A DNA stretch of 64,000 nucleotides from a virus. The position numbers were made by a program, and so were the translations under genes. Below are positions 1,153-62,553 of this stretch, one piece after another. A model generated the notes under the pieces. That model was not told the DNA's origin, did no database searches, and saw only the letters and a program-made list of their open reading frames with translations. The stretch is taken from positions 1 to 64,000 of IMG/VR virus record IMGVR_UViG_3300031576_001126; one strand, written 5' to 3'. Positions within the stretch are counted from its first letter, which is position 1. Every line of letters starts with the position of its first letter.

Positions 1153-1569
1153 TTACACAAAAATTTCGTTAAAATTTATATTCCCATGATCCAGTCCATA
1201 TCCATATCCATAATTACAATGATCTCCATTTTTAATTTCTTCTATTTTCTTTATTTTGCATTTTAAAACTTCAGTATTATTTATGGCAAGTTGATAATCT
1301 CCTTGAGAAACATATCTTGCGGCATTTACAAACAAAGCTTTTCCCTCTTGGGAGGCATTATTAAACCAATCTAATATTATTTGTCTTTTGTTCTGATTTG
1401 AACTTTCCACTAAGGTTATTAGATTTGCAACATCTTGTATGGCTGCAATTTTATCCGATGAACTTCCTGGCGTATTTGGATCGGATATCATTGAATTTAA
1501 TGAGCTTACAAATTTAGATTTGTTTGTTAAAAAAGATCTTATTATTAATTTTTCATTTTCTGTTAACAT
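1153..1569 (-). CDS. Hypothetical protein with C-terminal YGYGYG motif
   Basis: 138-aa ORF with GAGGAG RBS; NYGYGYGLDHG near the C-terminus. Confidence 0.7.
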   Translation of the reverse strand: MLTENEKLIIRSFLTNKSKFVSSLNSMISDPNTPGSSSDKIAAIQDVANLITLVESSNQNKRQIILDWFNNASQEGKALFVNAARYVSQGDYQLAINNTEVLKCKIKKIEEIKNGDHCNYGYGYGLDHGNINFNEIFV

Positions 1570-10016: not shown

Positions 10017-10223
10017 TCATTCTGCGTTATACCAATCCTCAAGAACATCGGCTGATTTTTGAATCATAAAGCATATTCTATCTTGAATTTCTTCTAATGT
10101 TCCTTCAATTGTTACTGCATCACCAAGCGGTTCCTTTGGTTTGTTTTTGATAAGTTTATCATGATAGTTATCACGTATTGTTAAATCCATTTTGATAATG
10201 GCTTTGTATTTTAGGTTATCCAT
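10017..10223 (-). CDS. Small hypothetical protein
   Basis: 68-aa ORF at the head of the leftward operon. Confidence 0.55.
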   Translation of the reverse strand: MDNLKYKAIIKMDLTIRDNYHDKLIKNKPKEPLGDAVTIEGTLEEIQDRICFMIQKSADVLEDWYNAE

Positions 10224-31620: not shown

Positions 31621-32187
31621 ATGGAACACATTGAAAAATTAGAAGAAAAAATAATGGGTTTGGTTTATATGGTCATTAACAAAATTAATGATAAAAAATA
31701 TGTTGGGCAAACCACAAAAGGTTTGGACTGTAGAAAAAAATGGCATTTATATGATTATAAAATAAGAAAAAAAACAATCCCTGCATTTTATAATGCCTTG
31801 ACAAAATATGGTAAAAAAAATTTCAATTGGATAATTTTGAAAGACAATATAAATATTTTAGAAATAGACGAAAAAGAAAAACAATGGATAGTAAGAAAAA
31901 AACCAAAAACAATAAGTTATAATTGTTTGTATAACAAATACTTTTTAGAAGGTCTTTCTGCAAAAGATATTTCTTTTGGTTCTGGATGTTCCAAAATCCA
32001 CATTATGAAAAGTTTAAAAAAATTTGAAATTTTATCACATCCAATTAGATGGCTTAGTGAAAAAAAGAGAATTCCCATAAAAAAAATACACGATAAAAAA
32101 ATTAAAAAAGATAGTTTTACAATACAAAGAGCAATAAATAAAACATACCATAAAAATAAAATGGAGAGTGAACAATGCCTCGTGTAA
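31621..32187 (+). CDS. GIY-YIG homing endonuclease (possibly degenerate C-terminus)
   Basis: GLVYMVINKINDKKYVGQT..RKKWH...FYNALTKYG..NF...EKEKQWI. Very AT- and Lys-rich, free-standing among structural genes (likely start 31654). Confidence 0.8.
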   Translation: MEHIEKLEEKIMGLVYMVINKINDKKYVGQTTKGLDCRKKWHLYDYKIRKKTIPAFYNALTKYGKKNFNWIILKDNINILEIDEKEKQWIVRKKPKTISYNCLYNKYFLEGLSAKDISFGSGCSKIHIMKSLKKFEILSHPIRWLSEKKRIPIKKIHDKKIKKDSFTIQRAINKTYHKNKMESEQCLV

Positions 32188-35100
32188 CAGCCGTTTTTCG
32201 CATGCCGTATATTTCGGCTGCTGGCGAAATACTTACCGGACAAATGGAGTCTACAAGATGGAAAATCGTAGACAAACAATTGGAGGCCCTTTATTCTTTT
32301 CTTGGCGATGGCATTATTTCTGGTTGGGAAATTGAAAAAACTCCGAATATACCCTTATCGATTACAATAACACCAGGATCTGGTGTTGTTTCTGGAATAG
32401 CTGCTGCAAGTTCAGATAATACAATTCTAGAAAATCTTGTGCCCGGCACTGTTTCTGGAAATACCACAAATTTTTTGTATGCCAAACTCCTCGGCCATAC
32501 TCCATATACGGCACAAGTTGACTTTGTATCGTCCACGGTTTTTTATGATTCGGCTGTTTATTTGAAACTTGGAAAAGTTATTGTAGATGCTCAAAAAAAG
32601 ATAGTATCTATAGACATGTCTGAGTCATCTGGAAGAAAAAATCTTAGTTTTGTCAATTTTGTCCTGTCCATTGTCAAAGAACATTTACATACTGGAGCGC
32701 CAACAGAACCATCAAAGATCGATCTTCAAAATCATGTAAAGGGTATTTTAGATTCATCTCATATTGGAAATATTTCGGCATCCAAAATAACGGGAGGCTT
32801 TATTTCTCCAGATAGATTTAAATTATCACATAAAGATTTACAAGATGTTGGCACACTGACACACGAAGAAATAGATTCTTTAATTGAAAAACTTCAAAAC
32901 ATAAATAGATTGCTTTTTGGAGATATAATGACATCTAATTTGATGCAACTATATCTTTCTTTTAAACATATTTGGCCTGAAGTTGATGAATTTGCGCAAA
33001 ATTTTATCGCCATTATCCCAGGTATAGGAAACAACAAACTTTTAAACCCGAATAGTTTTATTGATCTTAATGCAACTACGGCTGAAATTGATTTCACAAA
33101 TCACAGAATAAGAGGAAAATCTTTAGCGGCAAAAGAACTTGCTCAAACCACAATAAACACTTTAGCCGAATGGAATTCTGGAGAATTTAATTCAAGTTTT
33201 GTAAGAATTCTAGATACAGGATCAGCTTATGGATATGGTTATGGTTATGGTGAAGGATTAGATTTCTTTGATGTATTTCAAACATCAGATTTTAATTTTC
33301 TGACAGGAACAGATCAATTTATAAGTTTTTCTGGGAATCAAACCGGATATGGCGCTGATGATTTTGAAACTGTTTTTGCGGGACAATATAGTTATGGATA
33401 TGGTTACGAATATGTCTCTGGATTTCCAAACACACTAACCACAACTTTAGTGACTTTAAATCCATTATCGCAAACATTAAACATTCATGACGAAAAACTT
33501 TCAGAAAATGAATCTGGAGGAAATGATTATATCGCATCTGATGTAAATTCTGGATTTTTTGTTCAAAAAGATCTTATTCCAGATGGAACAACAAAAGCTG
33601 CTTTTATAAAAAATTTAGGGAAAGACATAGCAACAACCGCCAGCGGACGAAGAAGCACGTCTATTGATCCATTTAATAATGGTATAAATAATATTCCTGA
33701 TGATTTATATTCTTTTTATTCATTTAAAGTTTCTTCGGGTGCTGATGGTCAAATCACCGATTCCGACAGAGCCACTGTTTATGTTGTTTGGGATAATCCC
33801 GTTGACATGACAATTAACAATGTAATCACCTTCAGAGTCGTCCAGGCAAAGGATGGTGAAGGAAATTTAACGACTTTTGATGAAAATTGGACTTTTGATC
33901 ATAGTTTTCAACTAATACTTGAAGCTACTGATGATACGCATAGAGCATATTATCTTTACAAAACAACAAATTCAACCAACAGATTTTTTGTCGGAGACGA
34001 ATACACGAATCAAAATGAAACCGCTCCTCTTGGTTTCTTTGGAACAAAATATTTTCAATCTCTTGGAGAATTTATAGACGGCAAACACAGATTCGAGTTA
34101 GCTGCCACAATAACCAGTGATTCTCTTGAGTTTGTCACGGCTTTTAATAAGAGCACTGAAGTCACCGTCAACAATCCATTTACATTTACCACATTAATTC
34201 AAAAAATAACTGGAATAATCTTATATACAGATACTATTTTTGGTCATGATAATAAACAACAAAATAATTTAGGAGCCACTTTTGTAAAATTGCCACAAGG
34301 AAGAAGAGAAAGACTACAATTTTATCCGGGTTTCGATCCTTCCGCCAGAATGCTTGCCGATATAGATAAAATATTTATTGGAGGCCCATTTGGTTTCGGC
34401 GATGATGCGGATAACAATGACATTGTGGATTTGATTGTTTCTTTTCCAGATAGAGTTGATTTTAATTCAATTAGTTGGATTTCCGATGAACCCGGAGATT
34501 CCATTGTTTGGATTCAAGTCAATAGACTTGAGGAAGATTCAGCAAACGATTATAGAACAGAACCAATTTATAGCAACAATGTGACACGAGCATCTTCCAT
34601 ATTTCCTTCCTCTGAGATAAGGGGGCCTGGAGAAGATTTTACAGACATATTTAAAAATATTCGTGGTATAAGAATGAGAGTTGTCTTATTGCCAACAACT
34701 GATAAAAGAGTTGCCCCAACAATAAGCAGCATAAGTGTTAATTATTCATCAAATACATTATCTAGTTCTTTAACAATAACTTCTTTTGAAGATTGGCAAA
34801 ATGCACGATCTGTTAAAAATTTGAAGTTGACTACAGATGGAACTGTCTATATCGATTTGCCAACGACAACCTTTGGCAAGGTTCAAAACATTTTTTATGG
34901 AACAGACAGATCTGTGGTTGAAGTAAACAATGATTTTAATACCGTTGTAAAAAGATATAATGGTTCTAATCTTCCTCTCACGGTAACACAACAATTAAAT
35001 AACCGACCCACTGGTCTTTCTGGGGCCATAACAGACCTTAAAAAGATGCGAGAAGGAGACATTGTTCTTCTCGACAGAGATGAGAGTCGGATTGTATATT

Positions 35101-36296
35101 TGGATCAAAATTATAATTTGAAAAAGATAATATCTTCAGAAAGAGTATTTTTTTCAAATATGGATGTCGGCGCTGGAGCGGCCGGAGATACGGCAACTTT
35201 AGTGAAAGCCATTTACAATAGAGAATTGAGTGATGATGGAATTCTTTATTTGGTTTTCTCTCATCAATTAGCCGCATATCCATCTCCAAATAATACCAAT
35301 GTAAAACCAAGCCAAATGTTTATAAAAAGCAAAGGACAAACAATAGATTTATCTTCAATATCCGTATCTGGAGATAGTGTCATAGCTTGCGACAGAGGGA
35401 TTTTGTCATTGAAACTAGACAGCACTATAGCCAATTTTATAGAAAGTGCTGTCAATCCGGTATTTCAGATAAGATTGGATTCAAATCCCGCTGTTATATT
35501 CGCTGGGACAACCACGGTAACGGCTGGAAGAATAGACATGCCAATCGTAAAAATTGGATCCAAGGGTATCTTTTCAAGTTATAATCTTATTTATGCTCCA
35601 ATTCAAGGCGTTGTTGCTTTCGATATAGACAATGATCTTGATATATTGCATCTATTAAAAAGTCAAAAACCTTATTCTTGGGACACCGATTCCAGTGTTG
35701 ATAATGTCTGGTATGCAAGATTCAGTGTAAATAGATTTTGGACATCTTGGAACTCATCTGATTCAAATAGCGCCCTTATTGATCCGAATATAGAAACTAA
35801 CATTAACACTATTCGTGGAACTGAAAGTGATCCAAGTTTAGTTTCTCCAAACTTTTTTATTAATAATTTCTTTGGATACAAGGGCTCATTACAAAGATTT
35901 GGTGATTGGATGCTCATAACGTTATGTGGAGATAAAAAAGTATTCATTACAAAAAAAGATGATTCTACTGAAGGTGTTTTAAAATTCAGACAACCAACAA
36001 CAATAGATTTGCCGGAAGACGGAACAACACCAATGGCGGCGAGACTGGACCCATTAACAACAACCGCTGATGATTTTAATTTTGTTTATGTGGCTTTGAG
36101 TGATTTAAGAAGAGGGACAACAGATAAAACTGGCGAGTCCAAAATTGTAAAAATTCAAGTAGGAGTTGTTCCCTCTCAAATGATTATCTGGACTTGGGGA
36201 TCGGGCAGTGATGAGCGCACGACCCAGGCAGTGTCGTGTAACGATATCCGTCCTCTTCTTTATACAGATGCCGAAGGTGTATTTGTGAGCACATAA
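32175..36296 (+). CDS. Large virion structural (baseplate/fibre-anchor) protein containing a YG module
   Basis: 1373 aa. DGIISGW..LSITITPGSG N-terminal fibre-base motif; HLHTG and H.DL..VG..TH.EID motifs; YG module at 33228-33413. Confidence 0.6.
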   Translation: MPRVTAVFRMPYISAAGEILTGQMESTRWKIVDKQLEALYSFLGDGIISGWEIEKTPNIPLSITITPGSGVVSGIAAASSDNTILENLVPGTVSGNTTNFLYAKLLGHTPYTAQVDFVSSTVFYDSAVYLKLGKVIVDAQKKIVSIDMSESSGRKNLSFVNFVLSIVKEHLHTGAPTEPSKIDLQNHVKGILDSSHIGNISASKITGGFISPDRFKLSHKDLQDVGTLTHEEIDSLIEKLQNINRLLFGDIMTSNLMQLYLSFKHIWPEVDEFAQNFIAIIPGIGNNKLLNPNSFIDLNATTAEIDFTNHRIRGKSLAAKELAQTTINTLAEWNSGEFNSSFVRILDTGSAYGYGYGYGEGLDFFDVFQTSDFNFLTGTDQFISFSGNQTGYGADDFETVFAGQYSYGYGYEYVSGFPNTLTTTLVTLNPLSQTLNIHDEKLSENESGGNDYIASDVNSGFFVQKDLIPDGTTKAAFIKNLGKDIATTASGRRSTSIDPFNNGINNIPDDLYSFYSFKVSSGADGQITDSDRATVYVVWDNPVDMTINNVITFRVVQAKDGEGNLTTFDENWTFDHSFQLILEATDDTHRAYYLYKTTNSTNRFFVGDEYTNQNETAPLGFFGTKYFQSLGEFIDGKHRFELAATITSDSLEFVTAFNKSTEVTVNNPFTFTTLIQKITGIILYTDTIFGHDNKQQNNLGATFVKLPQGRRERLQFYPGFDPSARMLADIDKIFIGGPFGFGDDADNNDIVDLIVSFPDRVDFNSISWISDEPGDSIVWIQVNRLEEDSANDYRTEPIYSNNVTRASSIFPSSEIRGPGEDFTDIFKNIRGIRMRVVLLPTTDKRVAPTISSISVNYSSNTLSSSLTITSFEDWQNARSVKNLKLTTDGTVYIDLPTTTFGKVQNIFYGTDRSVVEVNNDFNTVVKRYNGSNLPLTVTQQLNNRPTGLSGAITDLKKMREGDIVLLDRDESRIVYLDQNYNLKKIISSERVFFSNMDVGAGAAGDTATLVKAIYNRELSDDGILYLVFSHQLAAYPSPNNTNVKPSQMFIKSKGQTIDLSSISVSGDSVIACDRGILSLKLDSTIANFIESAVNPVFQIRLDSNPAVIFAGTTTVTAGRIDMPIVKIGSKGIFSSYNLIYAPIQGVVAFDIDNDLDILHLLKSQKPYSWDTDSSVDNVWYARFSVNRFWTSWNSSDSNSALIDPNIETNINTIRGTESDPSLVSPNFFINNFFGYKGSLQRFGDWMLITLCGDKKVFITKKDDSTEGVLKFRQPTTIDLPEDGTTPMAARLDPLTTTADDFNFVYVALSDLRRGTTDKTGESKIVKIQVGVVPSQMIIWTWGSGSDERTTQAVSCNDIRPLLYTDAEGVFVST

Positions 36297-41996: not shown

Positions 41997-42009
41997 TGGA
42001 GCTTAAAAA

Positions 42010-45000
42010 ATGGCGGATGTTAGTATACAGGCGAATGAAGCCTTTTTAAATTTCTCAGACTTGGAAGGAGATATAAGCTCTCAAAAGTTTTCTATTACAC
42101 CTAATTTGTGGGTCGGACAAGTTTTTTTGTCAAGAACTGATGAATTAGACAAGATTTTTTTCCTTTGCGACAATACGGAAGCTTTAGAAGTTGAACTTTA
42201 TACAGCTTTAGTGAGCGGCGGAGGACAAGTGTTTACCCCCGACTTTCTACTCGCTTCCGTTTCTCATCCAGAAAATGGGGCAAGTCCATTTCAAGATATT
42301 TCTGTTGGGAATCAAAGTAATTCTGGTGGAATTTGGAGAAAAATAACATTTGATACGCCAATTTCTCTTGTTGAGGGCGCATTTTATATAATAGTTTTTA
42401 AAACAACAAGCACATCTAAAAGTCCAACAATTTTCTGGACAGCAAATTATAGACAATCAATAAACCCAATAATCACCGCATCCAATGATGCTGGTGCTAC
42501 ATGGTCAAATGACAATATTGAAACAATAACGGCAGGAAATACACAAGCCGGAGCGGTTTGTTTCGGATACGTTGGAAAAGAAGTTGATACAATTACTTAT
42601 TTGGACTCTGGAACGGTCACAATAGGAGGAACAGTCTCTTCAAGAAGAGGATATTCTGTTTTTCTATATGTTGAAAATTTAGATCCATTAAGCACAACTG
42701 TTGGAATTAACTTTTCGCAATTACCTCCTTCTGATCCAATAAATGGAACCAGCGAAGAAACCGATCAGGCCATGATGAGATGGTATTTTTTTGAAGAAGG
42801 CATTTTGCCAGTTTCTGCTGATTTTGAACCAGTTTTATTCAAAACAAATGTACAAGCAAAATTAGATATTAATGCTGAATTTGTGTTGTATATCCAACCA
42901 GATAGAATCTCGCCCTTGGCCGATACATATTATCCTGAAAGTGAAATAAACACATATGCAAATCCGATAGGGTTGATTCCTATATATAGCAGCACAAAAG
43001 AATTCATAGATTTTGATACTCCTTCCAATGCCTCTGATGAAAACGTCAATATGACTGCATCAACTGATGTAACTGATAGATTTGGAATTCAAAACTGGGC
43101 TCATTTAAAAAACAAAGCTAAACTTGAAACTTCGGGTAATCAAAGGCTGGCTTCTAGTTCTCAAAATCCAAGTTATTTTGATTTTTCAACAGAAAATCCA
43201 AGCAAAGATGTCGAAATTATAAAAACAATAACTCTAGATGGAACATTAGATGGAATAGAAAATGAAGAAGATGTAACAAGAGGATTTAATAGATCTGAAT
43301 TTTTAAAAAACAAATATATATTTTTTTCAAAAAAAGCAGAACAGGGTTATATTTCTTCTCCGTCATATCCAACTACTCCTGGCAAACTTTTGGCTTATGT
43401 TGCCGATAGTGATTTGATAAATTGGGAAAGAAAAACAATATCCGTGCTGGATTCTTCTCCCTCGACTCTTGGTTTGACTTTTGGAGATACAGCTTCAACA
43501 TATATTATTGGAGTTTATGACTCTGTTGTGGTCGCTATGCAAGGTGTTGAAACATTATTTGTTTTATTTCAAACCATATCTTTTTCGACAATTGGATCGG
43601 CAACATTCCCCTCTGGATTCCATATCGGATATTATCAGGGCGATTTTAGTGAAAGCGATATTCAATTTCAATTAATCAATCATGAACTTACAGATGTTCC
43701 AAATCTTGCCGACGTTAATTTTTCAAAGTTTACAGTAAACAATATTGATGAACAAAAATCAAGATTTATATTTCCAAATAATTCGGAAATTTTATATTTT
43801 TCGGCATCTAATGCTTCTGCTATATATGGTCTTGGAATATGGAAAATAAATCTTACTGATAGTTTATCTTCAATTTACGAAGCGGAGAGATTAAAAGTAA
43901 ATTCAGATACATCTATAGAACAAACGGGTATTTCCGACGAAAAAGACAAACAAATAACATTTGTTCTTTACGATGGAAATACAACTTATCTTGGGATTAG
44001 AACTAGTATTTCATACACATTTAGTTCGGTAAATGTCCCTACGATTGGTTCAAGTTATTTTGCAAGAGTTTATAGAACTGATGATTTTACAACATTCGAA
44101 CAATTGCTTGGCGGAGAAGCTTATAATTCGGCTTCTGCCGCCAATTTTCCATCCTGGCTTTCTGGAATTCATAGCGCACAGGATTATGATCCAACAAACG
44201 AAGGTGTTGTTTGGCCTCAGGTCGGAGAAGATTTTATTCCAAGCAACGAAGTCAAATTCATGCATAAAGTTGGAAACATATTGCATGTCTGGACTAATTG
44301 CTCTGCCTTTACTTCTGCGAATACTCCAATACATGTTGCCATAGATATTGTTTCAAAATCGACCAAAGTATTAAGATTGTTCCCAATAGAAGATGAAGCC
44401 GATTCCAGTTACGGAACAATTCCCAAAGTTTCAGATCTTGAGTTATATCCAAGAAGCAAAGCGTTAAGATGGATCGAGGGTGGTTCGGTAAATGGCAATC
44501 ACATTTTTATTTATGGAGCAGAATCATTAACATCATCTCTTGAACCCGCCACAATGAGCGCCTCATTGGATACTTTTGATTATGTCGCTGATCATGTCTT
44601 TAAATCTGATGATTTTAAAACAAGATGGTTGATTTATGATGATAGAACTATAAATGATGCTTTTGAAAAATATAATAGCTTGTCTGATTTTATAGGAAAT
44701 GCTGGAATCTCATCCATTTTATTTGAAGGAACTGGAAATGATGATATAAATATTGGTGGGACATATAGCGGAACAACATTTGACGAAAGATATTTGATTG
44801 AAGTCGAAAATAAAGGTTTGGTTGAATCCTTCACTGCCGGGGTTGGGATAGGTAACGGTCCTCTTGATGATTTTAATGCCAGCGGAACACCAACGGCCAC
44901 ATCTCAAAAAGAATTTATTGTTGAAATAGATAGAATTGCAGAAGTTGGAACAGGAACAGTAGCTAATGCCGGAGTTGGATCTCTAAATGATCCAAGCGCA

Positions 45001-48000
45001 GGATTTGCCGGATCTGGATCCAATGATGCTCAATTTACAACATTATTGTTGACACCTCTCTCTCCCAAAGCCATTGGCGTTGAAATAACATCTCTTGCTG
45101 CAGCAGACGTTTTCACTGGGTCTGGACTTAATGATTTGACGGCGCAAGCATCTTTGAATCCCGGATTAACATCTCAAGAAGAATTCAAGGTTGAAATAGA
45201 TAGCGCAGGATTAATTCCAAATAATACGGGACTTACGGCCTCTGCAAGTCCTGCTCCGACTCAGCAAAAGGATTATCATGTTGAAATAGTCGAGGATGCT
45301 GGAACAGAAATATTTTTAGGTTCAGGGCAGGATGATTTAAATGCAACTGTAACTTCACCATCAGAAAGCTATACTTATCAAATAGAAATAGAAAAATTAG
45401 CTTATGAAGATCAATTTGATCCAGCTATTATTACATCTGTTGTCGGTGATGATTTGGAAGCTTTTGGCAATTCAACAGAAGGATATCTCTATCAAGTAGA
45501 AATCGTCAGAAAAGCCATGGATGTAGAAACTGTAACTGGAACATTTTTGGATGACTTCCAAGTCACAAGACAAGTTGTTTTTAATGGAACTGGAACCAAT
45601 GATTTTGAAATAGTAGAAAGTTTAAGTCAAGATGGAATAGAATATAACTATGATATTTTAATAGAAATAGATGGACTTACATCATACAAATTATCAACTG
45701 ATGGAGGAGCAACTTTTGCCAGCGCATTAAATCCAATTGTAGCCAACACTCCATTTAATGTTGCTAGTTCTGGCTGGCGTGGACAATTCACGGTTGGATC
45801 TGGCTATGTTGTTGGTGATAAATGGTCTTTTCAAACAGTAGCAAATGTTTCGGCTGTTTACAAAGTTGAAATTGATAGTATTGGTTTGGATCCTGCTCCT
45901 GACACAAGTCCAGCAAATGGGGGTATTGATGATTTATCGGCGTCAACATCTGGTGGTGGGCCTTTGGATCAATTTTTATATGAAGTTGAAATAACAGATC
46001 AATCAGCAAGGAATGTGAGTTTTTCAAATCCCAGAATAGCCACAAATGAAGATGGAATATTTACGGCGAACCAAAACTACGATCCATCAACTAGCGCCGG
46101 TGCTTTGATAAAAGCCCTTGGAAATATACCAGAGAATAGGGATTTTGACGATCTTCCATTCGGATCCGATGCAATAGCCTATAGAACAGAAATAGACGGC
46201 AAAGCCCTAGATGCGTCCGTTTATGGATCTTATTTATATACTATTTCAAGAAACATTGTATCAAATTCAATATTTAAAATAATAAACACGTCTCACTTGG
46301 ACAATATACCGTCTCCATTGTCGACAACAAATGTGTCTGTGGATGGTATTGATTTTGTTGTATCTGGAAATTATGCTTATATAATATCAACATCTCTTGG
46401 AGATAATTCTTTAGAGATATACGATGTTTCTGACAAAACTTCTCCAATGTTATTATCAACATTGGATCTCGGAATATTTGTAAGTTCGGTCATTTCTATA
46501 ATTGGAGATACTGTTTATTTAGTGTCTAATGTTGTCCCCTCTCTCCCAAATTCAAGTTCTATAAATTTAATAGTTATAAATGTTGGGAATCCATTAAACC
46601 CATACATAAGAAGTGTGACAAGATCAACCGGAGGAGGAAGCGCTTCTGCCCTTTTTTCATCAAAACCTTTGCCATTAAGAGAGATGGTTTATCTTTCTCA
46701 ATCAAGCACAGCCTCGTTTTTTATTGTTAATGACAAAGATATTCCTCTAAATATAGGCCCAACGGACAACACTTTCGATGGTGGAAGTGGACAGACCGGC
46801 ATAGAGGCTTTAGATGACAGACTTTATGTTGCAAGCAGCAACAATAGAAAAGTTTTTGTATATAACGATCTCTCTTCCATGGAGTCCTTTGTTAGTTATG
46901 TTTTGCTTTCTGGTGGACCATTTTTTGAAGGAGAAATGATTGTAAAAACTTCATCGACTCCTACGGCCGGTGCTAATGCTACAATATTAACCGTAGTTGC
47001 ACCTTTTCCAACATCAGGTGAATTAAAATTAGGAAATGCATCACAATTAACTGGGATAACCATAGCTCCAAGTTCACAGTTTATATCAGGAGATACAATT
47101 TTTGGGGTTGAAAGTGGTGCTACTGCGACATTATCCTCAGGATTAACATTTAAAAACAAAGATGCTTCTGGTGCAAATCAGACTTCTACTGTTGGATTTA
47201 GAAAGGCAGCAACGATAACAACCTTTGGATTGAACCCAAATAATGTTCATCCTTTTAATTTTCTTATAAAGTCCAGTGAAGCAATCATTCTTAGCTCGCC
47301 GCCCATAACCATTGATTCGTTTGAAAATTCTACAGAATTTACATTTACTGTCTCTGGAACAACGGCAACAATATCTGGAAACATTACAGCACAAATTTTA
47401 AATGGATCTACTGTTAAATTTTACAATTTAACTGGCGGATCTGCCAATATTCTATTTGTAACATACAGAACTGTGCGCTCTGTCACCTATAATTCTGGTC
47501 CAAACACTACGACATTTACAATTTCTTCTATTTTAAGCGATAGAACTGGAGGAAAATGCTTTAAAATTGTAAATTATACGTTGCTTGCAGTTTCTTTGAC
47601 TGGAACAAATGCGGGTGTTGAAATTTACGATATGACAAATATCATAAATTTGGATGCATCTTTAAATCCATTAATATATCCATCACAAATGCTTGCAAGA
47701 ATTCCATTGTCAGATTTATCAGGATCTCCAAATTTCATATCAAATAGAGGCGATATTTTATATATATCCACAAGTGCCGGAGTGGATATATTTGAAATAT
47801 CAAGATCTTCCATAGTTCATAGTCATGAAAATCTTGGACATCTTATTGCTAAAAAAATAAACTCAACATCCGCCGGATCAACAATTGGAAGACTTGCCGT
47901 TTCTCCGATAAGTATATCTAATAATGTTGAATTTATAGGAAGGGTTGGACCAGTTTCCTTTACTCCTGTTTCCCTGGCGTCATCTGCTGGAAACAATATT

Positions 48001-51000
48001 CTACAAGCCATATCTGTGGATGGGAGATTGTCATTATCTTCTATTTCTGGATTTAATGCTGGAGATACAATAACTGGCTTGACATCTGGAGCCACGGCTA
48101 TAGTTTTCGCCTCTACAATTGGTTCGACGGCATATGGAAATCTTAATGGGAAATTTATACTTGGAGAAACAATTTCAAGTTCGGGAGGAGGCTCGGCTTC
48201 AAATTTTGGGTTATCAAATCCAGAACTACTAAGTATGAAGTCTGGAAAATACATTATAAAAGCAACATCAAGCACACAATATGTTTACTCTACAGATGGT
48301 GGAAAAACATTTACCACAACGCCAATTTTAATGTTAACATCCTTTGCGGGAATTGGATCAACTGGAGTTAGTATCAGGTTCGAGAGCACAACAACTCATG
48401 TCGCCGGAGATATTTGGGAATTCGAGGTTGGTCCAAATGGAATTTTCGATTACAAGGTTGAGATAGATAGTCTGTGGAATGATTCTTTGATTTTCACTGG
48501 ATCTGGATTGGATGATCTTAAAGTTTTTGGAGATCCGACCAATAATATTGATGTCGAAATAACAATAGATGGAACAGCGGAACAATTCGGATATGGTTAT
48601 GGGTTTGGATTGGGTGGAGACTTTTTCAACATATTCGGTTTTGCCGGCCCAGATTATGGTTATGGCGGAGGATCTTTCGAATATGATTATGCATATTCTT
48701 ATGATTATGGACTAGGATACGAGTATGGATATGGATATCCATTTGAAAACAACGCCACATCAACGGACACATTCTCTTATGTTGCAACAGTAAATAGCAT
48801 AACTATAGCATCTGGTTTTCAAATACCAATAACAGAAGATTTACAAAACATAACAAATGGAATACAAATAGAGTTTGGAAGCAAAGGCAAATTTAGCGAA
48901 GACTATCTCTTCACGTTATTCGGTTCTGCATCTCCGAGTGATGGATTCCAAATAATAAAATTGGATTCTATATATTCTGATTTAACATCTGGAGCAATAG
49001 TAGAAACACAATCTGTAGAAGATGCTGTTACTTTAGGACAAGTTAGTATTGCCTGCGATGAAAACTTAATGATAATAGGCAATCAAACTACTCCGTCTGT
49101 TTATATTTACAACACTAGAGATCCAGAGAATACCCATCTTGTTGGTGTGGAATCAGTAGTCCAGAATTGTGAAGACATTAGAATAAATGACAATTTACTA
49201 TTTATCGGTGGAAATTCTGGAGGAAACTCTCAATTTGTTATATATGATTTAACATATGCACAAGTTTCTGAACTTGTTGAGGACGATGTTGTTAATTTAT
49301 CGGATCCTTTTGTGAACATAAGAATAAAAGATGATTATGCTTTTGTTTTGGTAGATGACAGCGTTAATATAATTCTTCAATCTTGGGATATTTCCAATCC
49401 AATCAGTGTTCCAGTTTCGCCTGATGATACTTTGTCTTTGTCGTTTACGTCCGGCGGAGCGGATGCCTTGTCGTCTACAATTTCTGGAAATTATCATTAT
49501 TCTGCTGGGAATGTATCTGGAACATATTTTTTGAAAACTGTCGACATAACAAATCCAACGGCGCTTGTTTTATCAAGCTCTATATCTTTTGAATCTTCTT
49601 TTGTGGTTTTTTCCATAACATCTACTAATAATTTTTTATATATAACAGGACATAGGACAGTCCCAATTAATGCCGAAAGGCTTGTAAAGGTGTATGATAT
49701 TGTTTCTACTCCTGGAACTCCGGTTTTTACTGGAGAATATAAAGACTCCTTTGATGGTGCAGATTCTAGGATGACAGACATAAAAGCCAAAGATGGTATT
49801 GTGTATACAATGGCATTAAATAATAGCACTTCAGCATCATCCCTCTATATAATAGATGTTTCTCAACCAACAAATCCGTCATTATTAACAAGTATATTGG
49901 TTGCTGATTACACTGTTTTATTAAATCTATGCACATTAACAAGAACGCAGGGGCATACTTATGGGGACAAATGGAATTTTTCATCCAGAGACACATTTAG
50001 ATGGACCGATGACGCAAGAAGACCAGTTACCATTTGGAACGAAGAAGAAGTCGAGATAAATTCTGGAATTCAGAACATAGACAATTTAACCGCAGTGCTT
50101 TTCTTAGAAAAAACAGCAGGATATGCTCTTGGTGACACTTGGGATTTTTCAACTGTTGATACTTTTAGATGGGCGGCGGATATAACTGGAACGGTATTGG
50201 ATATTTCTGATTCAAGTTTTGAATGGCAAGAAGAAAAAATCAAAGCGCCATTTGAAGGCGGAGTTATTGATCTAGAATCCACTTCTCCATTTGACAATCC
50301 AAATGTTAAATTGGATTTCTTTGATTCCAACGGATATTTCATAGGAGATTTTATAGACTGGTCATACACTCAACAAGATAGTTATTCTGTAAGAATTTAT
50401 GAATTTAATCCACTTCTTGGTTTGGATGTAATTAGAACATCACCATTTTTGATTACTCCAACTACGCCAACTTTGCCAACAAATCAACTTGTTACCGCAG
50501 GATCTCCGGTGTCGGTTGCAATAACTTCTCCTGAAGCAACTGGCCCTGTTTTTGTGGAGTTTGATGGTGGAATAGGACACAAAACTGGAGATAAATGGAC
50601 ATTTACAACACTAGATACATTCAGATGGACAGATAAAGTTTTTCCTCAACTTATTGACAACGATCCTATCTCTGGTTTTGTTATTCAATGGAATGAAACA
50701 AAAGTTCCAATTATGACGGACGTATTAACTCTATATTCTTTAAATAATAATGTTGATATTACCATAGGTAATAAAAATGGCCATGATATAGGAGATGCTT
50801 GGATTTTTTCAACTGTTGATACTTTTAAATATTCGGTTGGGGATGATCTAGATGACTTGTCTCAAAAAAGAACCGATATTCCCATACCTCTCGAAGGAGG
50901 AATTTCAAGCATTGGAAAACAAGATACTGCCGCAAACGATAAAGATTCTGAAAATAATGTATTTATAGATTCAAACTATGATGTAGGACACAGTATTGGT

Positions 51001-54000
51001 GATAAATGGACATTTTCAACAACTGATGCCTTTAGATATATCATATTGAACTTTGGATATGGTTATGGATTTGGATCGGGGGCCGATTACTTTGATGTGT
51101 TTGGTCATCTTGGAGGATTTGTTGGATATGGATGGGATACTTCAAATCAAATAGGCACAAATAATCAATTATTTGAATCTGTTAATGCATCACAATATGG
51201 ATATGGAACGGGATATGAATATGGTTTTGGTCAATATGGATTCTCTTTTGACATAGACATTAATTGCATTCCAATAAAATTAACAAACAACATAGGCAAT
51301 GGTGTTGTTTTGGATTTTTCAAATCTTTCTGGGCACAGTGGAAATGAAATTTGGCAATTTTCATCATCAGACAAGTTTGTCTACAATATAGACGGTGGAT
51401 CTGATATTGGACCAATAAATGTGAGTGATGATTTTGTTGGTGTTGAAAACGGGATATCAATAAAATTCAACAGTCTTTCTGGATTTTCAGTTGGAGATTC
51501 TTGGGATTTTAAAACAATAGATACTTTTAAATATTATGAAGATAATGTTCTTATTGCTTCTAATATTAATTTATCAACATCGTCAATAAGTCTTGAGTCA
51601 TATATGAGCATATCGTTTGGAAACGTGACTGGCCATACTGTTGGCAATTATTGGACTTTTGATGCTTTAGATGAATTCACGTATGAAGTTAAAACTCTTC
51701 CAAACACCAAAACGCTTAACGATAGCATAGTTCTTGGATCAACCATTACTGGATCGACATCTGTTATAACTGGGATTTCTCAACCCGTTGGAGGAGGCTC
51801 AGATGTTGATGTTACATTTACAAATCAAAATGGACACACTCTTGGAGATAAATGGAGAATAGCAAATGTTGATTCTTATAAGTGGAGTGATAATAATGGC
51901 TTATCTTATACCATATTAAAAATAGCGACATCAACACCAAGTCTTCTTTCCAATGGAATTTCAGCAAGTTTCCCAACTCTTAACAATTTGAGAAATCACA
52001 ACGTTGGAGACAAATGGACTTTCGATGCTTTAGATGAAATTAAGTGGTCTAAAAATAATGGGTCCACATTTGAAGCAAGTGGATTGCCCGCCTTGATATC
52101 TCCGACAACATCGATAGGGAGTGGTCTTAATTTTTCATTTGATGCATCACTTGGACATGATATCGGGGATATATGGACTTTTCATCCAGTTCCAAAAATA
52201 GGGTATCAACTTGTGGAAGGGAAAGGTGTTTATCATGGAAAAACAATAGCGATATTTGATCACGATGAAACAGCAAGAATGTTTTCTGATTATCCCGCTC
52301 TTTCTCCGGATCTTAGTACTCTATCAACAAAACCAAGGGCTGGAATTTATTGTGGATTAGTTAACTATGCTGGAAGTTCTGTTGATAATATAGAATTTGA
52401 CAATTCAAATACCCCAGAATCAATAATAACAGCTAATGGTATTACTTATATAATATCTGAAAATGATGACGACGGAATAAGAGCGTTTAAAACCTATGGA
52501 ATAAAAGAACTTCCTCAAAATTGGGGTAAATCTTTTCAAACATCTTTGGGAGCGCAATCAACTATAACTGCTTTTGAAAAAATAGATATAGATAAAGCAA
52601 ATTTTGAACTCGCTGTCGGAGGGCCAAGCACTTTTGTAAATATCATAAGAAGAGGCCATGTTCAAAAAATAAATGGCGCTGTATTTATTTCTGAAATAAA
52701 AAAAGATTCATTATCTGCTGGATTTGATAATGTAAACTTAACATTTCCCAATAGATCTATTTTAGCTATATCTAATACGCTAAGAAGACCTCAAGAAATA
52801 ACAGCTTTCTTTAATATTAATTATCTTGGAGATATAGAGTCGGATGTCATAGGCGGTGTTCCTGTGGCCGATATTCTCTCAAATATAGAGGCTTCCAACA
52901 CGAATATTTTTATAAAATGCGCAGAAACCATAGAAAAATTATTTGAAGAACCAAAAGCCATATTAGATATTCCCCTGGCTCAAGATGTTGATGGAAGTAA
53001 TTCTACAAGATCTCTTATATCAAACACATTCCAAACAGATACTGAAAATAACTTCTTCAGAATAGAAAGTAACAATCTTCTATCGGATGATAGTGGAAGC
53101 GGAAATCCAAGAGAATTAGTTGATTTGAAAATAAAAGGATTAAGATTACACGATATAACTTTGCAAGGTCCTGAAGAAAATACAAACAATATGAAAGTTG
53201 CTGTTACTGGCATAATTGACGAAGGATCAGGAGTTCCTGAAAATGCTCTTCAAAACGGAGTTCATGTGCCTTCCAATGGGGAGATAATCGTTGATTTCAA
53301 CAAACCAATTTATTTAAGCGAAATCAGCTTTGACGTTGAATACTTTGGAACGGATTTAGCTGGCGCTAACCAATCTCAATTCTCGATATATGCTCTTACG
53401 ACATTCCACAATCAAAAATATGGAAATAATATAATTGACAAGAATGATTGGACTTTAATTGGATCTCCGGAGTTTGTAAGTCTTACTGGAAATCAAGATT
53501 CCATTTCAAAAGATGCCATAGGCATGTTTGTAAAGTCAGTAAGAATATTTCTTAATTCCGGGGTCACCCTGAAAGTAAAGAATCTGTCATTCAAAAGTTT
53601 TACTGGATCTTCTGATCAATTTTCTTCAAGTGGAGATGTGAAGTCCCCGGAAATGATAACAATAGATGATCCATTCGGAATCCTTGTTGCGGATATTTCC
53701 GGGATGCCGTCTTCTTTTGCAGTGTTAAATAGTGACGGCAGCAATATAACTATAGATTTAGAGGAAAACGTTCCTGTCACAAGAATTTCTCTCGGAGCAT
53801 ATTCCGGAAACGATCCAACAAAATCTTTGAAAATAGAATCATGGGACGGAGCCACTACATTGCTTGGGTCTCCGGTTTATGAAATACTTCATAATGCTCC
53901 AATAAGCGATTATGAACTTTCTGTTGTACAATGGACTCCAAGATTAAAAGATAAGTCCAGAGAAGTTCAAGTTATTTTCCTTTCTTCAGGGGATATAGAA

Positions 54001-54450
54001 AGCGAAAGTCAATTGAACGATTTAATTGAATCATATAACAAACCAGAAAACTCAGCGTTACTTGCAAATTCTGGACTTTCCGGTTTTGTTTTCAAGCCAA
54101 ATACTTTAAAGGATAGAACGCTTACAATAACTTCTTCAAAAGAATCTTCTGGGGAATTTGACGGTTCTATTTTTGTCAATGCACAGATGGATGAAGATGG
54201 ACCTTTTGCTTCTGATTTATCAGAGGAAACTTTAGGATTAATTGAGAAAAAGATTAATGTAGATTTCCCGCTTAGACAAATAAGAAAAATAAAAATTTCT
54301 TTGACTAGCCAAATGCCTAACAACGCTGGTGTCAGGGTAAACGGTCTCAAAATATACTCGCCAATTGTCGATGAAACAGGCACAGCGGAATTCCCAAGAA
54401 CTGGGGTTGCATGGACAATAAGACTCACAGCAAGCATTATAACGCAATAA
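42010..54450 (+). CDS. Giant tail appendage / adhesin (4146 aa) with nested split repeats, LVIVD-type propellers and two YG modules
   Basis: Continuous ORF with GGAG RBS. LEIYDVSDKTSP, LYIIDVSQPTNPSLL and similar LVIVD repeats; GH..GD.W.F repeats; paralogous N- and C-terminal scaffold shared with 54464-61219. Confidence 0.75.
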   Translation: MADVSIQANEAFLNFSDLEGDISSQKFSITPNLWVGQVFLSRTDELDKIFFLCDNTEALEVELYTALVSGGGQVFTPDFLLASVSHPENGASPFQDISVGNQSNSGGIWRKITFDTPISLVEGAFYIIVFKTTSTSKSPTIFWTANYRQSINPIITASNDAGATWSNDNIETITAGNTQAGAVCFGYVGKEVDTITYLDSGTVTIGGTVSSRRGYSVFLYVENLDPLSTTVGINFSQLPPSDPINGTSEETDQAMMRWYFFEEGILPVSADFEPVLFKTNVQAKLDINAEFVLYIQPDRISPLADTYYPESEINTYANPIGLIPIYSSTKEFIDFDTPSNASDENVNMTASTDVTDRFGIQNWAHLKNKAKLETSGNQRLASSSQNPSYFDFSTENPSKDVEIIKTITLDGTLDGIENEEDVTRGFNRSEFLKNKYIFFSKKAEQGYISSPSYPTTPGKLLAYVADSDLINWERKTISVLDSSPSTLGLTFGDTASTYIIGVYDSVVVAMQGVETLFVLFQTISFSTIGSATFPSGFHIGYYQGDFSESDIQFQLINHELTDVPNLADVNFSKFTVNNIDEQKSRFIFPNNSEILYFSASNASAIYGLGIWKINLTDSLSSIYEAERLKVNSDTSIEQTGISDEKDKQITFVLYDGNTTYLGIRTSISYTFSSVNVPTIGSSYFARVYRTDDFTTFEQLLGGEAYNSASAANFPSWLSGIHSAQDYDPTNEGVVWPQVGEDFIPSNEVKFMHKVGNILHVWTNCSAFTSANTPIHVAIDIVSKSTKVLRLFPIEDEADSSYGTIPKVSDLELYPRSKALRWIEGGSVNGNHIFIYGAESLTSSLEPATMSASLDTFDYVADHVFKSDDFKTRWLIYDDRTINDAFEKYNSLSDFIGNAGISSILFEGTGNDDINIGGTYSGTTFDERYLIEVENKGLVESFTAGVGIGNGPLDDFNASGTPTATSQKEFIVEIDRIAEVGTGTVANAGVGSLNDPSAGFAGSGSNDAQFTTLLLTPLSPKAIGVEITSLAAADVFTGSGLNDLTAQASLNPGLTSQEEFKVEIDSAGLIPNNTGLTASASPAPTQQKDYHVEIVEDAGTEIFLGSGQDDLNATVTSPSESYTYQIEIEKLAYEDQFDPAIITSVVGDDLEAFGNSTEGYLYQVEIVRKAMDVETVTGTFLDDFQVTRQVVFNGTGTNDFEIVESLSQDGIEYNYDILIEIDGLTSYKLSTDGGATFASALNPIVANTPFNVASSGWRGQFTVGSGYVVGDKWSFQTVANVSAVYKVEIDSIGLDPAPDTSPANGGIDDLSASTSGGGPLDQFLYEVEITDQSARNVSFSNPRIATNEDGIFTANQNYDPSTSAGALIKALGNIPENRDFDDLPFGSDAIAYRTEIDGKALDASVYGSYLYTISRNIVSNSIFKIINTSHLDNIPSPLSTTNVSVDGIDFVVSGNYAYIISTSLGDNSLEIYDVSDKTSPMLLSTLDLGIFVSSVISIIGDTVYLVSNVVPSLPNSSSINLIVINVGNPLNPYIRSVTRSTGGGSASALFSSKPLPLREMVYLSQSSTASFFIVNDKDIPLNIGPTDNTFDGGSGQTGIEALDDRLYVASSNNRKVFVYNDLSSMESFVSYVLLSGGPFFEGEMIVKTSSTPTAGANATILTVVAPFPTSGELKLGNASQLTGITIAPSSQFISGDTIFGVESGATATLSSGLTFKNKDASGANQTSTVGFRKAATITTFGLNPNNVHPFNFLIKSSEAIILSSPPITIDSFENSTEFTFTVSGTTATISGNITAQILNGSTVKFYNLTGGSANILFVTYRTVRSVTYNSGPNTTTFTISSILSDRTGGKCFKIVNYTLLAVSLTGTNAGVEIYDMTNIINLDASLNPLIYPSQMLARIPLSDLSGSPNFISNRGDILYISTSAGVDIFEISRSSIVHSHENLGHLIAKKINSTSAGSTIGRLAVSPISISNNVEFIGRVGPVSFTPVSLASSAGNNILQAISVDGRLSLSSISGFNAGDTITGLTSGATAIVFASTIGSTAYGNLNGKFILGETISSSGGGSASNFGLSNPELLSMKSGKYIIKATSSTQYVYSTDGGKTFTTTPILMLTSFAGIGSTGVSIRFESTTTHVAGDIWEFEVGPNGIFDYKVEIDSLWNDSLIFTGSGLDDLKVFGDPTNNIDVEITIDGTAEQFGYGYGFGLGGDFFNIFGFAGPDYGYGGGSFEYDYAYSYDYGLGYEYGYGYPFENNATSTDTFSYVATVNSITIASGFQIPITEDLQNITNGIQIEFGSKGKFSEDYLFTLFGSASPSDGFQIIKLDSIYSDLTSGAIVETQSVEDAVTLGQVSIACDENLMIIGNQTTPSVYIYNTRDPENTHLVGVESVVQNCEDIRINDNLLFIGGNSGGNSQFVIYDLTYAQVSELVEDDVVNLSDPFVNIRIKDDYAFVLVDDSVNIILQSWDISNPISVPVSPDDTLSLSFTSGGADALSSTISGNYHYSAGNVSGTYFLKTVDITNPTALVLSSSISFESSFVVFSITSTNNFLYITGHRTVPINAERLVKVYDIVSTPGTPVFTGEYKDSFDGADSRMTDIKAKDGIVYTMALNNSTSASSLYIIDVSQPTNPSLLTSILVADYTVLLNLCTLTRTQGHTYGDKWNFSSRDTFRWTDDARRPVTIWNEEEVEINSGIQNIDNLTAVLFLEKTAGYALGDTWDFSTVDTFRWAADITGTVLDISDSSFEWQEEKIKAPFEGGVIDLESTSPFDNPNVKLDFFDSNGYFIGDFIDWSYTQQDSYSVRIYEFNPLLGLDVIRTSPFLITPTTPTLPTNQLVTAGSPVSVAITSPEATGPVFVEFDGGIGHKTGDKWTFTTLDTFRWTDKVFPQLIDNDPISGFVIQWNETKVPIMTDVLTLYSLNNNVDITIGNKNGHDIGDAWIFSTVDTFKYSVGDDLDDLSQKRTDIPIPLEGGISSIGKQDTAANDKDSENNVFIDSNYDVGHSIGDKWTFSTTDAFRYIILNFGYGYGFGSGADYFDVFGHLGGFVGYGWDTSNQIGTNNQLFESVNASQYGYGTGYEYGFGQYGFSFDIDINCIPIKLTNNIGNGVVLDFSNLSGHSGNEIWQFSSSDKFVYNIDGGSDIGPINVSDDFVGVENGISIKFNSLSGFSVGDSWDFKTIDTFKYYEDNVLIASNINLSTSSISLESYMSISFGNVTGHTVGNYWTFDALDEFTYEVKTLPNTKTLNDSIVLGSTITGSTSVITGISQPVGGGSDVDVTFTNQNGHTLGDKWRIANVDSYKWSDNNGLSYTILKIATSTPSLLSNGISASFPTLNNLRNHNVGDKWTFDALDEIKWSKNNGSTFEASGLPALISPTTSIGSGLNFSFDASLGHDIGDIWTFHPVPKIGYQLVEGKGVYHGKTIAIFDHDETARMFSDYPALSPDLSTLSTKPRAGIYCGLVNYAGSSVDNIEFDNSNTPESIITANGITYIISENDDDGIRAFKTYGIKELPQNWGKSFQTSLGAQSTITAFEKIDIDKANFELAVGGPSTFVNIIRRGHVQKINGAVFISEIKKDSLSAGFDNVNLTFPNRSILAISNTLRRPQEITAFFNINYLGDIESDVIGGVPVADILSNIEASNTNIFIKCAETIEKLFEEPKAILDIPLAQDVDGSNSTRSLISNTFQTDTENNFFRIESNNLLSDDSGSGNPRELVDLKIKGLRLHDITLQGPEENTNNMKVAVTGIIDEGSGVPENALQNGVHVPSNGEIIVDFNKPIYLSEISFDVEYFGTDLAGANQSQFSIYALTTFHNQKYGNNIIDKNDWTLIGSPEFVSLTGNQDSISKDAIGMFVKSVRIFLNSGVTLKVKNLSFKSFTGSSDQFSSSGDVKSPEMITIDDPFGILVADISGMPSSFAVLNSDGSNITIDLEENVPVTRISLGAYSGNDPTKSLKIESWDGATTLLGSPVYEILHNAPISDYELSVVQWTPRLKDKSREVQVIFLSSGDIESESQLNDLIESYNKPENSALLANSGLSGFVFKPNTLKDRTLTITSSKESSGEFDGSIFVNAQMDEDGPFASDLSEETLGLIEKKINVDFPLRQIRKIKISLTSQMPNNAGVRVNGLKIYSPIVDETGTAEFPRTGVAWTIRLTASIITQ

Positions 54451-54463
54451 GTGGAGAGAATTA

Positions 54464-61219: not shown

Positions 61220-61221
61220 GA

Positions 61222-62553
61222 ATGGCAAGTCAGATTCAATTCGATATATCAATATCCGCTTCTGCTCCAATTGTCGCTGCAATTGGTTCGGCTAATCTTT
61301 TATTGAATGGAAGTTTTGAAAGTTTTGAATCTCTTACTCCTTTTCTCCCTTCGGATTGGGTTTTGCTTCCACTTCCTCCGGGACCAGGAAGTCCTGTTTT
61401 TGGACCTGAGACATCAACTGTTTTTGATGAAATAAAAAGCCTTAAGTGGTCCCACGATGGAATCGGGCAGCGTCCAAGCATTCAACAAATAATAACCGCT
61501 CAAACATACATGGATGGTAAAACCATGAAGGTGACCGGGAAAATCAGGTCATCAACATCAGACAAACAAACTTTGTCTATGTCGGTAGGCATTAACGGAG
61601 TTGGAACACCAACTCTTGTCTTGCCAAATGGTAGTCAGAATGAGAACATAGAAACTCCAGAAACTGGGGTTGTTTTTAATTTAGAATATGATAATCAACA
61701 ATGGTATGATTTTGATTTTTATTATCATGTTCCAGAATCTGGAATTTTTTCATTAGGCCCAGTTCTTTTCCCAACAGCGACAGACAGTACCACGGAAGTT
61801 TATCTCGATGATGTAAGAATGTTTTTTGAAATAACGAATAGGTCGGAATCGTGGAGAATAGATCTTGAACCAATTGATAATCTTCTTTATGGATATGGAT
61901 ATGGGTATTCATATGATTTTATAAATGTTGGAGATCCAATTGACTTAACCGATTTGAGTTATTTTAATGTATTCGGTATTCTTGGAGATTATGAAGGAAT
62001 TGGATATAATAATACAGTAACAAATATTGACTTGCCATCTGAGTTTGTTGATGCCGGATATCAATATGGATTTGGTTATGAGTCAGGACCATTCTTCAAG
62101 GCTGACGGAGAAGACACCATAACAGTCAGAGCAACTGTTTTTGAAAACAATATAAGACAACCGAATATAAGAGTTGTTTTTAAAGCATCTCCGTTTGTTA
62201 CTTTGTCCCCGCATTCAACTACCACGGATGCTTTTGGAGAAGCCTTTTGTAATGTGAGTTTCAATTCCGATGTAAGCCAAAACACTTTAAGACAACCTGG
62301 AAATACAGTTTTATCAAATGTTAGCTTCAATGGATTTCTTTCGATATTTTGTGAGATTGATAAAAACCCAGAAGAAGAAGAGGGAATATTCTTAATACAA
62401 ACAAGCTCTGTGCAAGTAACGAACACATCCTTAAATATATTGGATATAGGAACATATGGGTTCGGAAAAAGGACATATGGGTATGGCTATAATTACGGAT
62501 ACGGTTATACTCCAAATAATTTTGATATAAATGATCTGTTTTTCATATCGTGA
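61222..62553 (+). CDS. Virion protein with CBM-like domain, YG module and Ig-like (Big-1-like) domain
   Basis: NLLLNGSFE..LKWSHDG..YLDDVR; YG module; ADGEDTITVRATV...TTDAFGEA invasin-type Ig motif; C-terminal YGYGYNYGYGY. Confidence 0.65.
   Translation: MASQIQFDISISASAPIVAAIGSANLLLNGSFESFESLTPFLPSDWVLLPLPPGPGSPVFGPETSTVFDEIKSLKWSHDGIGQRPSIQQIITAQTYMDGKTMKVTGKIRSSTSDKQTLSMSVGINGVGTPTLVLPNGSQNENIETPETGVVFNLEYDNQQWYDFDFYYHVPESGIFSLGPVLFPTATDSTTEVYLDDVRMFFEITNRSESWRIDLEPIDNLLYGYGYGYSYDFINVGDPIDLTDLSYFNVFGILGDYEGIGYNNTVTNIDLPSEFVDAGYQYGFGYESGPFFKADGEDTITVRATVFENNIRQPNIRVVFKASPFVTLSPHSTTTDAFGEAFCNVSFNSDVSQNTLRQPGNTVLSNVSFNGFLSIFCEIDKNPEEEEGIFLIQTSSVQVTNTSLNILDIGTYGFGKRTYGYGYNYGYGYTPNNFDINDLFFIS

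Follow-up and report, generated by a model that had tools for sequence, protein, structure and literature searches.

A tyrosine- and glycine-rich insertable module, a putative mini-domain family, in giant tail-region proteins of an uncultured tailed phage

Why should several giant proteins of one virus share a short, ordered stretch that is rich in tyrosine and glycine? The question is raised by a stretch of 64,000 nucleotides (the window in what follows) that forms the start of the IMG/VR virus record IMGVR_UViG_3300031576_001126, a linear record of 140,188 bases with a CheckV completeness of 42% and a G+C content of ~30-39%. We conclude that the record comes from an uncultured giant tailed phage. 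An earlier reading of the letters of the window, referred to here as the original prediction, had proposed that four full copies of a Tyr/Gly-rich module occur there as a portable tag in unrelated virion proteins. On the comparisons described below, we regard this module as a previously undescribed family of protein mini-domains. The four copies are listed with their scores against a hidden Markov model (HMM) of the module; protein lengths are in amino acids (aa).

33228..33413, plus strand: copy m1, residues 352-413 of a 1373-aa protein; 57.9 bits
48586..48741, plus strand: copy m2, residues 2193-2243 of a 4146-aa protein; 43.2 bits
51052..51240, plus strand: copy m3, residues 3015-3080 of the same 4146-aa protein; 51.0 bits
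61888..62082, plus strand: copy m4, residues 223-287 of a 443-aa protein; 49.6 bits

Translations of all four intervals reproduce exactly the peptides quoted in the original prediction, and the copies match profile positions 1-46/47 with 43-58 bits. A combined regular-expression and profile scan found five further copies past the window, at record positions 72108 (a short form), 72933, 78723, 89513 and 90449, all within open reading frames (ORFs) of 6287 and 2440 aa. The record thus holds nine copies in five giant ORFs. When all 508 open frames of the record were compared with the profile, the nine copies scored 26-62 bits, the runner-up 8-11 bits and everything else below 5 bits.

Shorter YGYG tails had also been counted among the relatives of the module, which held for one of them in part. 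At 1195..1212 on the minus strand, YGYGYG forms the C-terminus of an orphan 138-aa ORF (1153-1569, minus strand) and resembles the first third of the module at a marginal score (8.2-10.9 bits, expect value (E) 0.01-0.1 within the record), so that it may be called a marginal half-module; the ORF itself has no homologue among 5.8 billion proteins. The YG-rich C-terminal tail of the 443-aa protein (62455..62508, plus strand) is not a module copy (-1.3 to 1.7 bits), and a YG-rich C-terminus is retained in the orthologues P0062-P0065 of this protein. The stretch at 18850 consists of bare YGYG only.

The module is more than low complexity, as had been claimed for it. Each copy was scored against a profile built from the other eight, together with 500 shuffles of the tested copy. 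In this leave-one-out test the copies reached 20.8-61.3 bits, while residue shuffles stayed at or below 13.9 bits and shuffles with YG/FG dipeptides kept intact at or below 11.4 bits; m1, for example, scored 54.0 bits against 4.4 bits for its best shuffle. When X was substituted for all YG runs in both training and test sequences, the match stayed significant (14.9-41.1 bits for the copies, at most 7.3 bits for shuffles). A low-complexity Gly/Tyr-rich region was therefore rejected: composition alone fails to account for the scores, and the order of residues is fixed. At the DNA level the copies are only ~59% identical and their Gly codons are varied. This degree of identity rules out a microsatellite or a recent duplication and indicates that conservation operates on the protein.

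The same tests bear on the idea of a disordered low-complexity 'sticker', or an amyloid-like zipper, that lacks a defined fold. The Gly/Tyr-rich composition would suit such a role, and fibrillar self-assembly has been predicted computationally for GYGYGYG peptides, prion-inspired synthetic heptapeptides with a modelled tendency to zip into beta sheets and fibrillar architectures (PMC8163036). The YG alternation is identical in the two cases, which makes this a useful analogy; the peptides, however, are fibril-forming heptapeptides, whereas in the module the YG strands form both termini of a defined unit of 47 aa. Four invariant and two near-invariant positions, scores that outlast the masking of YG, fixed positions of inserts and a structural model with a predicted local distance difference test (pLDDT) of 86 all speak against disorder, and we consider this reading highly improbable.

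Position frequencies of the module were taken from the 73 instances of a protein profile search; with loci from metagenomes there are 101 distinct instances. The consensus spans ~47 residues and reads YGYGYGYG-x-G-L-D-[YF]-F-[DN]-[VI]-[FLI]-G-x2-G-x3-G-Y-G-x3-F-E-x6-Y-G-Y-G-Y-G-Y-E. Glycines G4, G6, G25 and G44 are invariant (frequency 1.0), and F14 and E46 stand at 0.99-1.0. The alanine written into the earlier consensus is not conserved among the profiled instances and has been dropped.

How widely is the module distributed? The HMM built from the copies, besides adding five copies in the record, identified 55 carrier proteins at E<=1e-3 among 1.84 billion representative proteins. These carriers are giant proteins and a few small ones, all from metagenomic contigs. 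Several size groups can be recognized: proteins of ~1300-1500 aa with the module near residue 350-385, proteins of ~1900-2700 aa with modules near residues 140 and 455, and further groups of ~4000-4900 aa and ~5800-6300 aa. The size groups correspond to orthologues of the carriers of this phage, four of which have alignable orthologues. Complete small proteins of 160-280 aa also carry the module, at residues ~30-80; one of them, P0060 (210 aa, module plus a Big_1 domain), is encoded in a syntenic metagenomic contig at the place in the gene order that the 443-aa protein has here. A degenerate DNA pattern of the module found 33 loci in metagenome contigs and 0 matches in the viral contig collection, and a tblastn search of 50,697 deposited phage records with two carriers found nothing. 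The module thus appears to be confined to relatives of this phage, as judged from the alignable orthologue groups and one syntenic contig, the other contigs being themselves unclassified.

In 185,579 prokaryote genomes the DNA pattern had a single match, which is not a member of the family. It lies in a Flavobacterium metagenome-assembled genome (MAG; JADKDN010000001.1, positions 3540-3597 of the retrieved locus) and scores 6-7 bits against the module profile. The match, which arose by chance, is to the C-terminus of a 91-aa open frame, where a (YG)6 cluster precedes ...FKDFFNI. Presumably it resembles the autophosphorylated tyrosine cluster of Wzc-type kinases, the frame being unannotated. 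The module itself was rejected as a C-terminal tyrosine cluster of such bacterial tyrosine (BY) kinases, since the modules are internal to giant non-kinase proteins.

Known families offer no relative either. None of the nine copies matched a Pfam family at E<=10 with hmmscan (PF01473 and the fibritin C, Big and CBM families included), and no match of a whole carrier overlapped a module; an ordinary Pfam domain, which would have spoken against the original prediction, was thus not found. PDB sequences gave no match to the module profile at E<=10, Foldseek with a model of the module found nothing in PDB or BFVD, VIA-align against 48,161 chains found none at Z>=2, and the ESM Atlas returned no usable match. 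The absence of fold matches is weak evidence for a new fold because the model has only 52 residues, which gives the searches low power.

These results matter for a second reading, in which the module is a glycan- or cell-wall-binding unit like the 'YG' choline- or glucan-binding repeats and provides generic low-affinity adhesion to polymers of the host surface. Flat Tyr-rich surfaces are typical sugar-binding sites. Carriers include CBM_4_9-like domains, Big_1 (immunoglobulin (Ig)-like) domains and a weak galactose-binding-like domain, and several copies per protein would provide avidity. The closest known counterpart is CW_binding_1 (PF01473), whose repeats are likewise short aromatic and glycine-containing units present in multiple copies in surface and phage proteins. 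The module differs from it in the lack of any profile match noted above, in its build (47 aa with four strand segments rather than a 20-aa tandem hairpin) and in its occurrence as single inserts rather than tandem arrays. The lack of any Pfam match or of a PDB sequence or fold match counts against a glycan-binding unit of this kind.

Conservation also counts against it. The module is the best-conserved 48-aa window in the families of the 2440-aa and 6287-aa proteins and lies in the 77th-88th percentile in the others, and 14 of the 20 invariant columns in the alignment of the 443-aa family fall inside it. The module is therefore among the most conserved stretches of its carriers, whereas the parts of phage fibres that contact host receptors usually vary fast. 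Taking both kinds of evidence together, we hold a glycan-binding role to be less likely than the reading preferred below, and unlikely in itself.

Each copy in the window is closest to its positional orthologue in another contig and not to a paralogue in the same genome; the nearest relative of m2 is the positional orthologue P0010_2064, and that of m3 is P0010_2866 (79% identity). It follows that the copies are old, vertically inherited and not homogenised, and gene conversion within the genome was rejected on the same grounds. The Tyr/Gly positions and the acidic positions D12, [DN]15, E32 and E46 remain constant across diverged phages and carriers. Such constancy would favour a conserved contact or a structural role over a variable receptor site.

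Is the module portable, as the original prediction proposed? The 200-aa flanks on each side of the copies have no significant BLAST similarity between carriers, with two exceptions: within-protein repeats, and propeller-like sequence that matches weakly between the 6287-aa protein and the 2440-aa protein. The claim of 'unrelated virion proteins' stands as regards the flanks, with these exceptions, while virion status is read from gene position only. In the 443-aa protein, m4 separates a CBM-like N-terminal domain from an Ig-like (Big_1) domain. The site of m1 is occupied by a module in nine orthologues as well.

The 4146-aa protein had been described as a case in which the module breaks otherwise alignable repeats. 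Copy m3 lies at the junction of two GDxWxF...DxFxY units, with the same repeat family on both sides, and not within a unit, so that this description applies to the junction only. Copy m2 follows the last [YF]x[VI]EI/GxGxDD[LF] element and precedes a DxFxY element, a position that fits the 'turn' of the nested hairpin proposed for this protein, as far as the sequence can tell. In the same protein, [YF]x[VI]EI/GxGxDD[LF] elements occur at residues 907-1324 and 2148-2164 and GDxWxF/DxFxY elements mostly at residues 2652-3386, with propeller-like (LVIVD) stretches between the two kinds of element.

Exact presence and absence of the module is seen in a family of ~6000-aa orthologues, at sites that lie past the window in the same record. 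Modules are present at residues 712 and 2915 in P0008, which is the 6287-aa protein of the record, and in P0009. In P0014, P0019, P0038 and P0057 both flanks align and exactly the module is absent, as in the alignment of ...ITSIVCIPKTPTSG[module]ESLDIYVGTWGNGVW with ...ITCIVRAGSS--EIYVGTWGSGVW. The pattern around the insert is ...TSIV...[module]..IYVGTWGxGVW..., which places the insert between two adjacent strand-like segments of propeller-type repeats. At such a point an insert of 47 residues would need to have its ends close together. With non-homologous flanks, several architectures and exact presence or absence at two sites, the term 'portable' is well justified. Small domains are known to be shuffled among the fibre proteins of phages.

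Such gains and losses invite a third reading, in which the module is a recombination linker at the DNA level: its (TAYGGN)n ends would provide microhomology for swapping or deleting segments of fibre genes, as has been proposed for T-even fibre motifs. The same hexanucleotide-type repeat is indeed encoded at both ends, the module is found at borders between unrelated domains, and gains or losses have occurred. The orthologues that are free of the module, however, have no YGYG stub at the site; loss has consequently not proceeded by slippage between terminal YG repeats, and we rejected that route. The divergence of the copies in DNA with varied Gly codons, conservation at the protein level that includes residues outside the YG runs, and the lack of homogenisation within the genome are likewise difficult to reconcile with a linker that acts as DNA. 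This role is again less likely than our preferred one, and we consider it very unlikely. The T-even adhesin gp38 remains a relevant comparison, since its conserved glycine-rich segments frame variable loops and the motifs lie at domain boundaries of fibre proteins. The glycine-rich motifs of gp38 form a sandwich of polyglycine-II (PGII) helices. The module, in contrast, is predicted to contain beta strands with alternating tyrosines, its loops are short and mostly conserved, and it has no match to PDB in sequence or fold.

What kind of structure could be inserted in this way? Copy m2 is the shortest full copy, and its sequence was modelled alone by AlphaFold2 with 38 aligned copies. The best model has a pLDDT of 85.9 and a predicted template modelling (pTM) score of 0.66, and the five models range from 78.6 to 85.9 in pLDDT. 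Strands are assigned at residues 2-7, 14-15 (short), 25-27 (short) and 39-46, with a helical turn at 31-34; the YGYGYG first strand and the YGYGYE last strand flank the D-[YF]-F-[DN]-[VI]-F segment. A model of the whole 443-aa carrier (AlphaFold2, 10 sequences) is poor, with a pLDDT of 48, and has the same strand pattern as the model of the module.

Natural length variation agrees with a defined architecture. Additional sequence is found at three fixed sites only: after YGYGYG, after DYFDV[FLI] and after GYGxD. The first site takes up ~20 aa in m4, following the first YGYGYG strand, and ~80 aa in P0054. The second holds 13-17 aa in the 1373-aa family (15 aa following DFFDVF in m1 itself), and the third holds 10 aa in m3, following GYGWD. 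Fixed loop sites and invariant glycines are what is expected of a folded unit. According to the model, the module most likely folds on its own, and we are close to confident that it is a real folded and portable domain. The predicted secondary structure and the geometry of the insertions and deletions agree with a putative pairing of the first and last strands, which would make the termini adjacent.

Two natural systems help to picture such a unit. The foldon of T4 fibritin is a 27-aa trimerisation mini-domain. Like the module it is a very small beta unit with aromatic residues and glycine in a phage fibre, and the module could likewise register chains; the foldon, however, is C-terminal and single, whereas the module is internal, occurs in several copies and has no match to it in sequence or fold. 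The second system is the stalk of the bovine ultralong heavy-chain complementarity-determining region 3 (CDR H3), an alternating-tyrosine ladder in a two-stranded ribbon. That ribbon, which carries a knob, exits its host domain and re-enters it at a single point, and the resemblance is one of analogy, with no homology. The knob of the antibody is disulfide-bonded and hypervariable, in contrast to the cysteine-free and conserved module. Bovine ultralong CDR H3 is encoded by YG-rich IGHD segments, and the germline D segment ends in ...YSYSYTYEY (PMC7366855).

We propose the following mechanism. The first YGYGYG and the last YGYGYE strands would pair as a ribbon, so that the insert would share a single point of exit from and re-entry into the host domain. 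A small aromatic core would be formed by the D-[YF]-F-[DN]-[VI]-F and F-E segments. Host domains of the propeller-like, repeat and Ig/CBM types would thus display on their surface a rigid knob rich in Tyr. In the weakest step of the proposal, this knob would serve as a conserved contact site rather than as a variable site for a host receptor. It may join copies to each other, for example between fibre chains or between giant appendage proteins; alternatively, it could bind a virion partner or a ligand that the copies have in common. Our best reading of the sequence data, with a probability of roughly 55%, is an insertable, self-closing knob rich in Tyr whose role is that of a conserved contact site. 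The narrower suggestion of a conserved protein-protein or self-contact role is tentative, and we place it somewhat below even odds. A bolder version, which we think unlikely, would make the module a universal connector in the manner of cohesin and dockerin, with identical self-closing Tyr-zipper knobs on different giant proteins that zip together or to a common adaptor and so wire a tail appendage of several megadaltons into a network.

Several points weigh against the contact-site knob. The pairing of the strands is deduced from the secondary structure of the model and from natural insertions and deletions. Covariation among the 101 copies (mutual information with average product correction) is dominated by subfamily signal and yields neither a strand register nor usable contacts; moreover, the confidence of a model that has 52 residues and a repetitive sequence may be overstated. 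Orthologues can do without the module at two of the nine sites (residues 712 and 2915 of the 6287-aa protein), which means that a single copy is not essential. The location of the carriers in the virion is taken from gene order. Finally, glycosyltransferases and a sulfotransferase flank the carrier genes and make a role in modification conceivable.

This last point leads to the main rival of the contact-site reading, in which the module is a substrate of modification. An exposed tyrosine ladder would be O-glycosylated or O-sulfated by enzymes of the phage, or oxidatively cross-linked (of the dityrosine or dihydroxyphenylalanine (DOPA) type), so as to harden or mask the appendages. Among eukaryotes, resilin and trematode eggshell proteins are examples of Gly/Tyr-rich structural proteins with cross-links through tyrosine. 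Three or four glycosyltransferases and a sulfotransferase are encoded around the carrier genes, and the sole pattern match in a cellular genome, the Flavobacterium frame described above, is a C-terminal YG cluster of Wzc-like appearance. The relevant genes in the window form one minus-strand block, which also includes a protein with YadA-head repeats:

1582-2409, minus strand: sulfotransferase (PF13469/PF00685), by family match
2442-7259, minus strand: 1605-aa protein with YadA-head repeats (phrog_25468, E 3e-129)
8519-10048, minus strand: GT4 glycosyltransferase

Immediately after the 2440-aa carrier come two further genes for glycosyltransferases (417 and 989 aa), at record positions 96439-100658. 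A modification substrate, however, needs exposed tyrosine and nothing more; invariant G4, G6, G25 and G44, near-invariant F14 and E46, fixed loop sites and a compact fold would be superfluous. The only solved structure matched by the sulfotransferase is a polyketide-synthase sulfotransferase domain (E 0.007) and not a tyrosylprotein sulfotransferase. No peroxidase, tyrosinase or laccase was seen among ~45 ORFs scanned, a weak argument given that many ORFs of the record lie outside that scan. On balance modification is improbable as the function of the module.

The position of the carrier genes remains to be described. They are tail-region genes, downstream of the head-tail adaptor and tail-tube genes, and gene position and order suggest that their products are virion proteins. 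The relevant genes of the window are as follows.

12697-13203, plus strand: head-tail adaptor, Mu Gp36-like
16447-17568, plus strand: tail tube
32175..36296, plus strand: carrier, 1373-aa protein, from the ORF list
42010..54450, plus strand: carrier, 4146-aa repeat protein with two modules, from the ORF list
61222..62553, plus strand: carrier, 443-aa protein with one module, an ORF

The giant ORFs downstream of the tail tube encode, in order, proteins of 1230, 1749, 1079, 1373, 1899, 4146, 2251, 443, 2195, 6287 and 2440 aa. The 1373-aa carrier belongs to no known family, having no match in Pfam, PHROGs or PDB. The sole family match of the 4146-aa carrier is an LVIVD repeat at residues 1448-1483. 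In the 443-aa carrier the Big_1 match scores 27.3 bits, under the Pfam cut-off, and its orthologue P0065 contains PF02018. A gene for a homing endonuclease of the GIY-YIG type (31621-32187, plus strand) lies between two giant structural genes, directly 5' of the 1373-aa carrier. Just upstream of the head-tail and tail genes, an actin-like protein is encoded at 10947-12059 (plus strand); it matches Volactin (PF25216, E 3.8e-56), and its match to MreB is weak. Replication genes occupy 111-131 kilobases of the record. Among them, a DnaE-like DNA polymerase is only ~28-30% identical to those of the closest deposited phages. It is split over two ORFs (record positions 126443-127807 and 129140-131287), whose sequences correspond to successive stretches of phrog_405 (profile positions 42-435 and 411-945); two small ORFs lie between them.

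The finding adds a module family for which no relative could be detected in Pfam, PDB, BFVD or cellular genomes, and whose make-up, an alternating Tyr-Gly ribbon that is proposed to close a tiny aromatic core, is unusual. Its exact presence or absence within aligned host domains is a clean natural experiment. The module can serve as a sharp marker for one clade of uncultured giant phages, and it offers a handle on the construction and cohesion of enormous appendage proteins of up to 6287 aa. It is also a candidate for a minimal, cysteine-free and insertion-tolerant fold, which would make a new minimal scaffold for protein engineering if the connector reading is true. A common docking or cross-linking function, if the module proves to have one, would account for the assembly of several unrelated giant proteins into a single structure.

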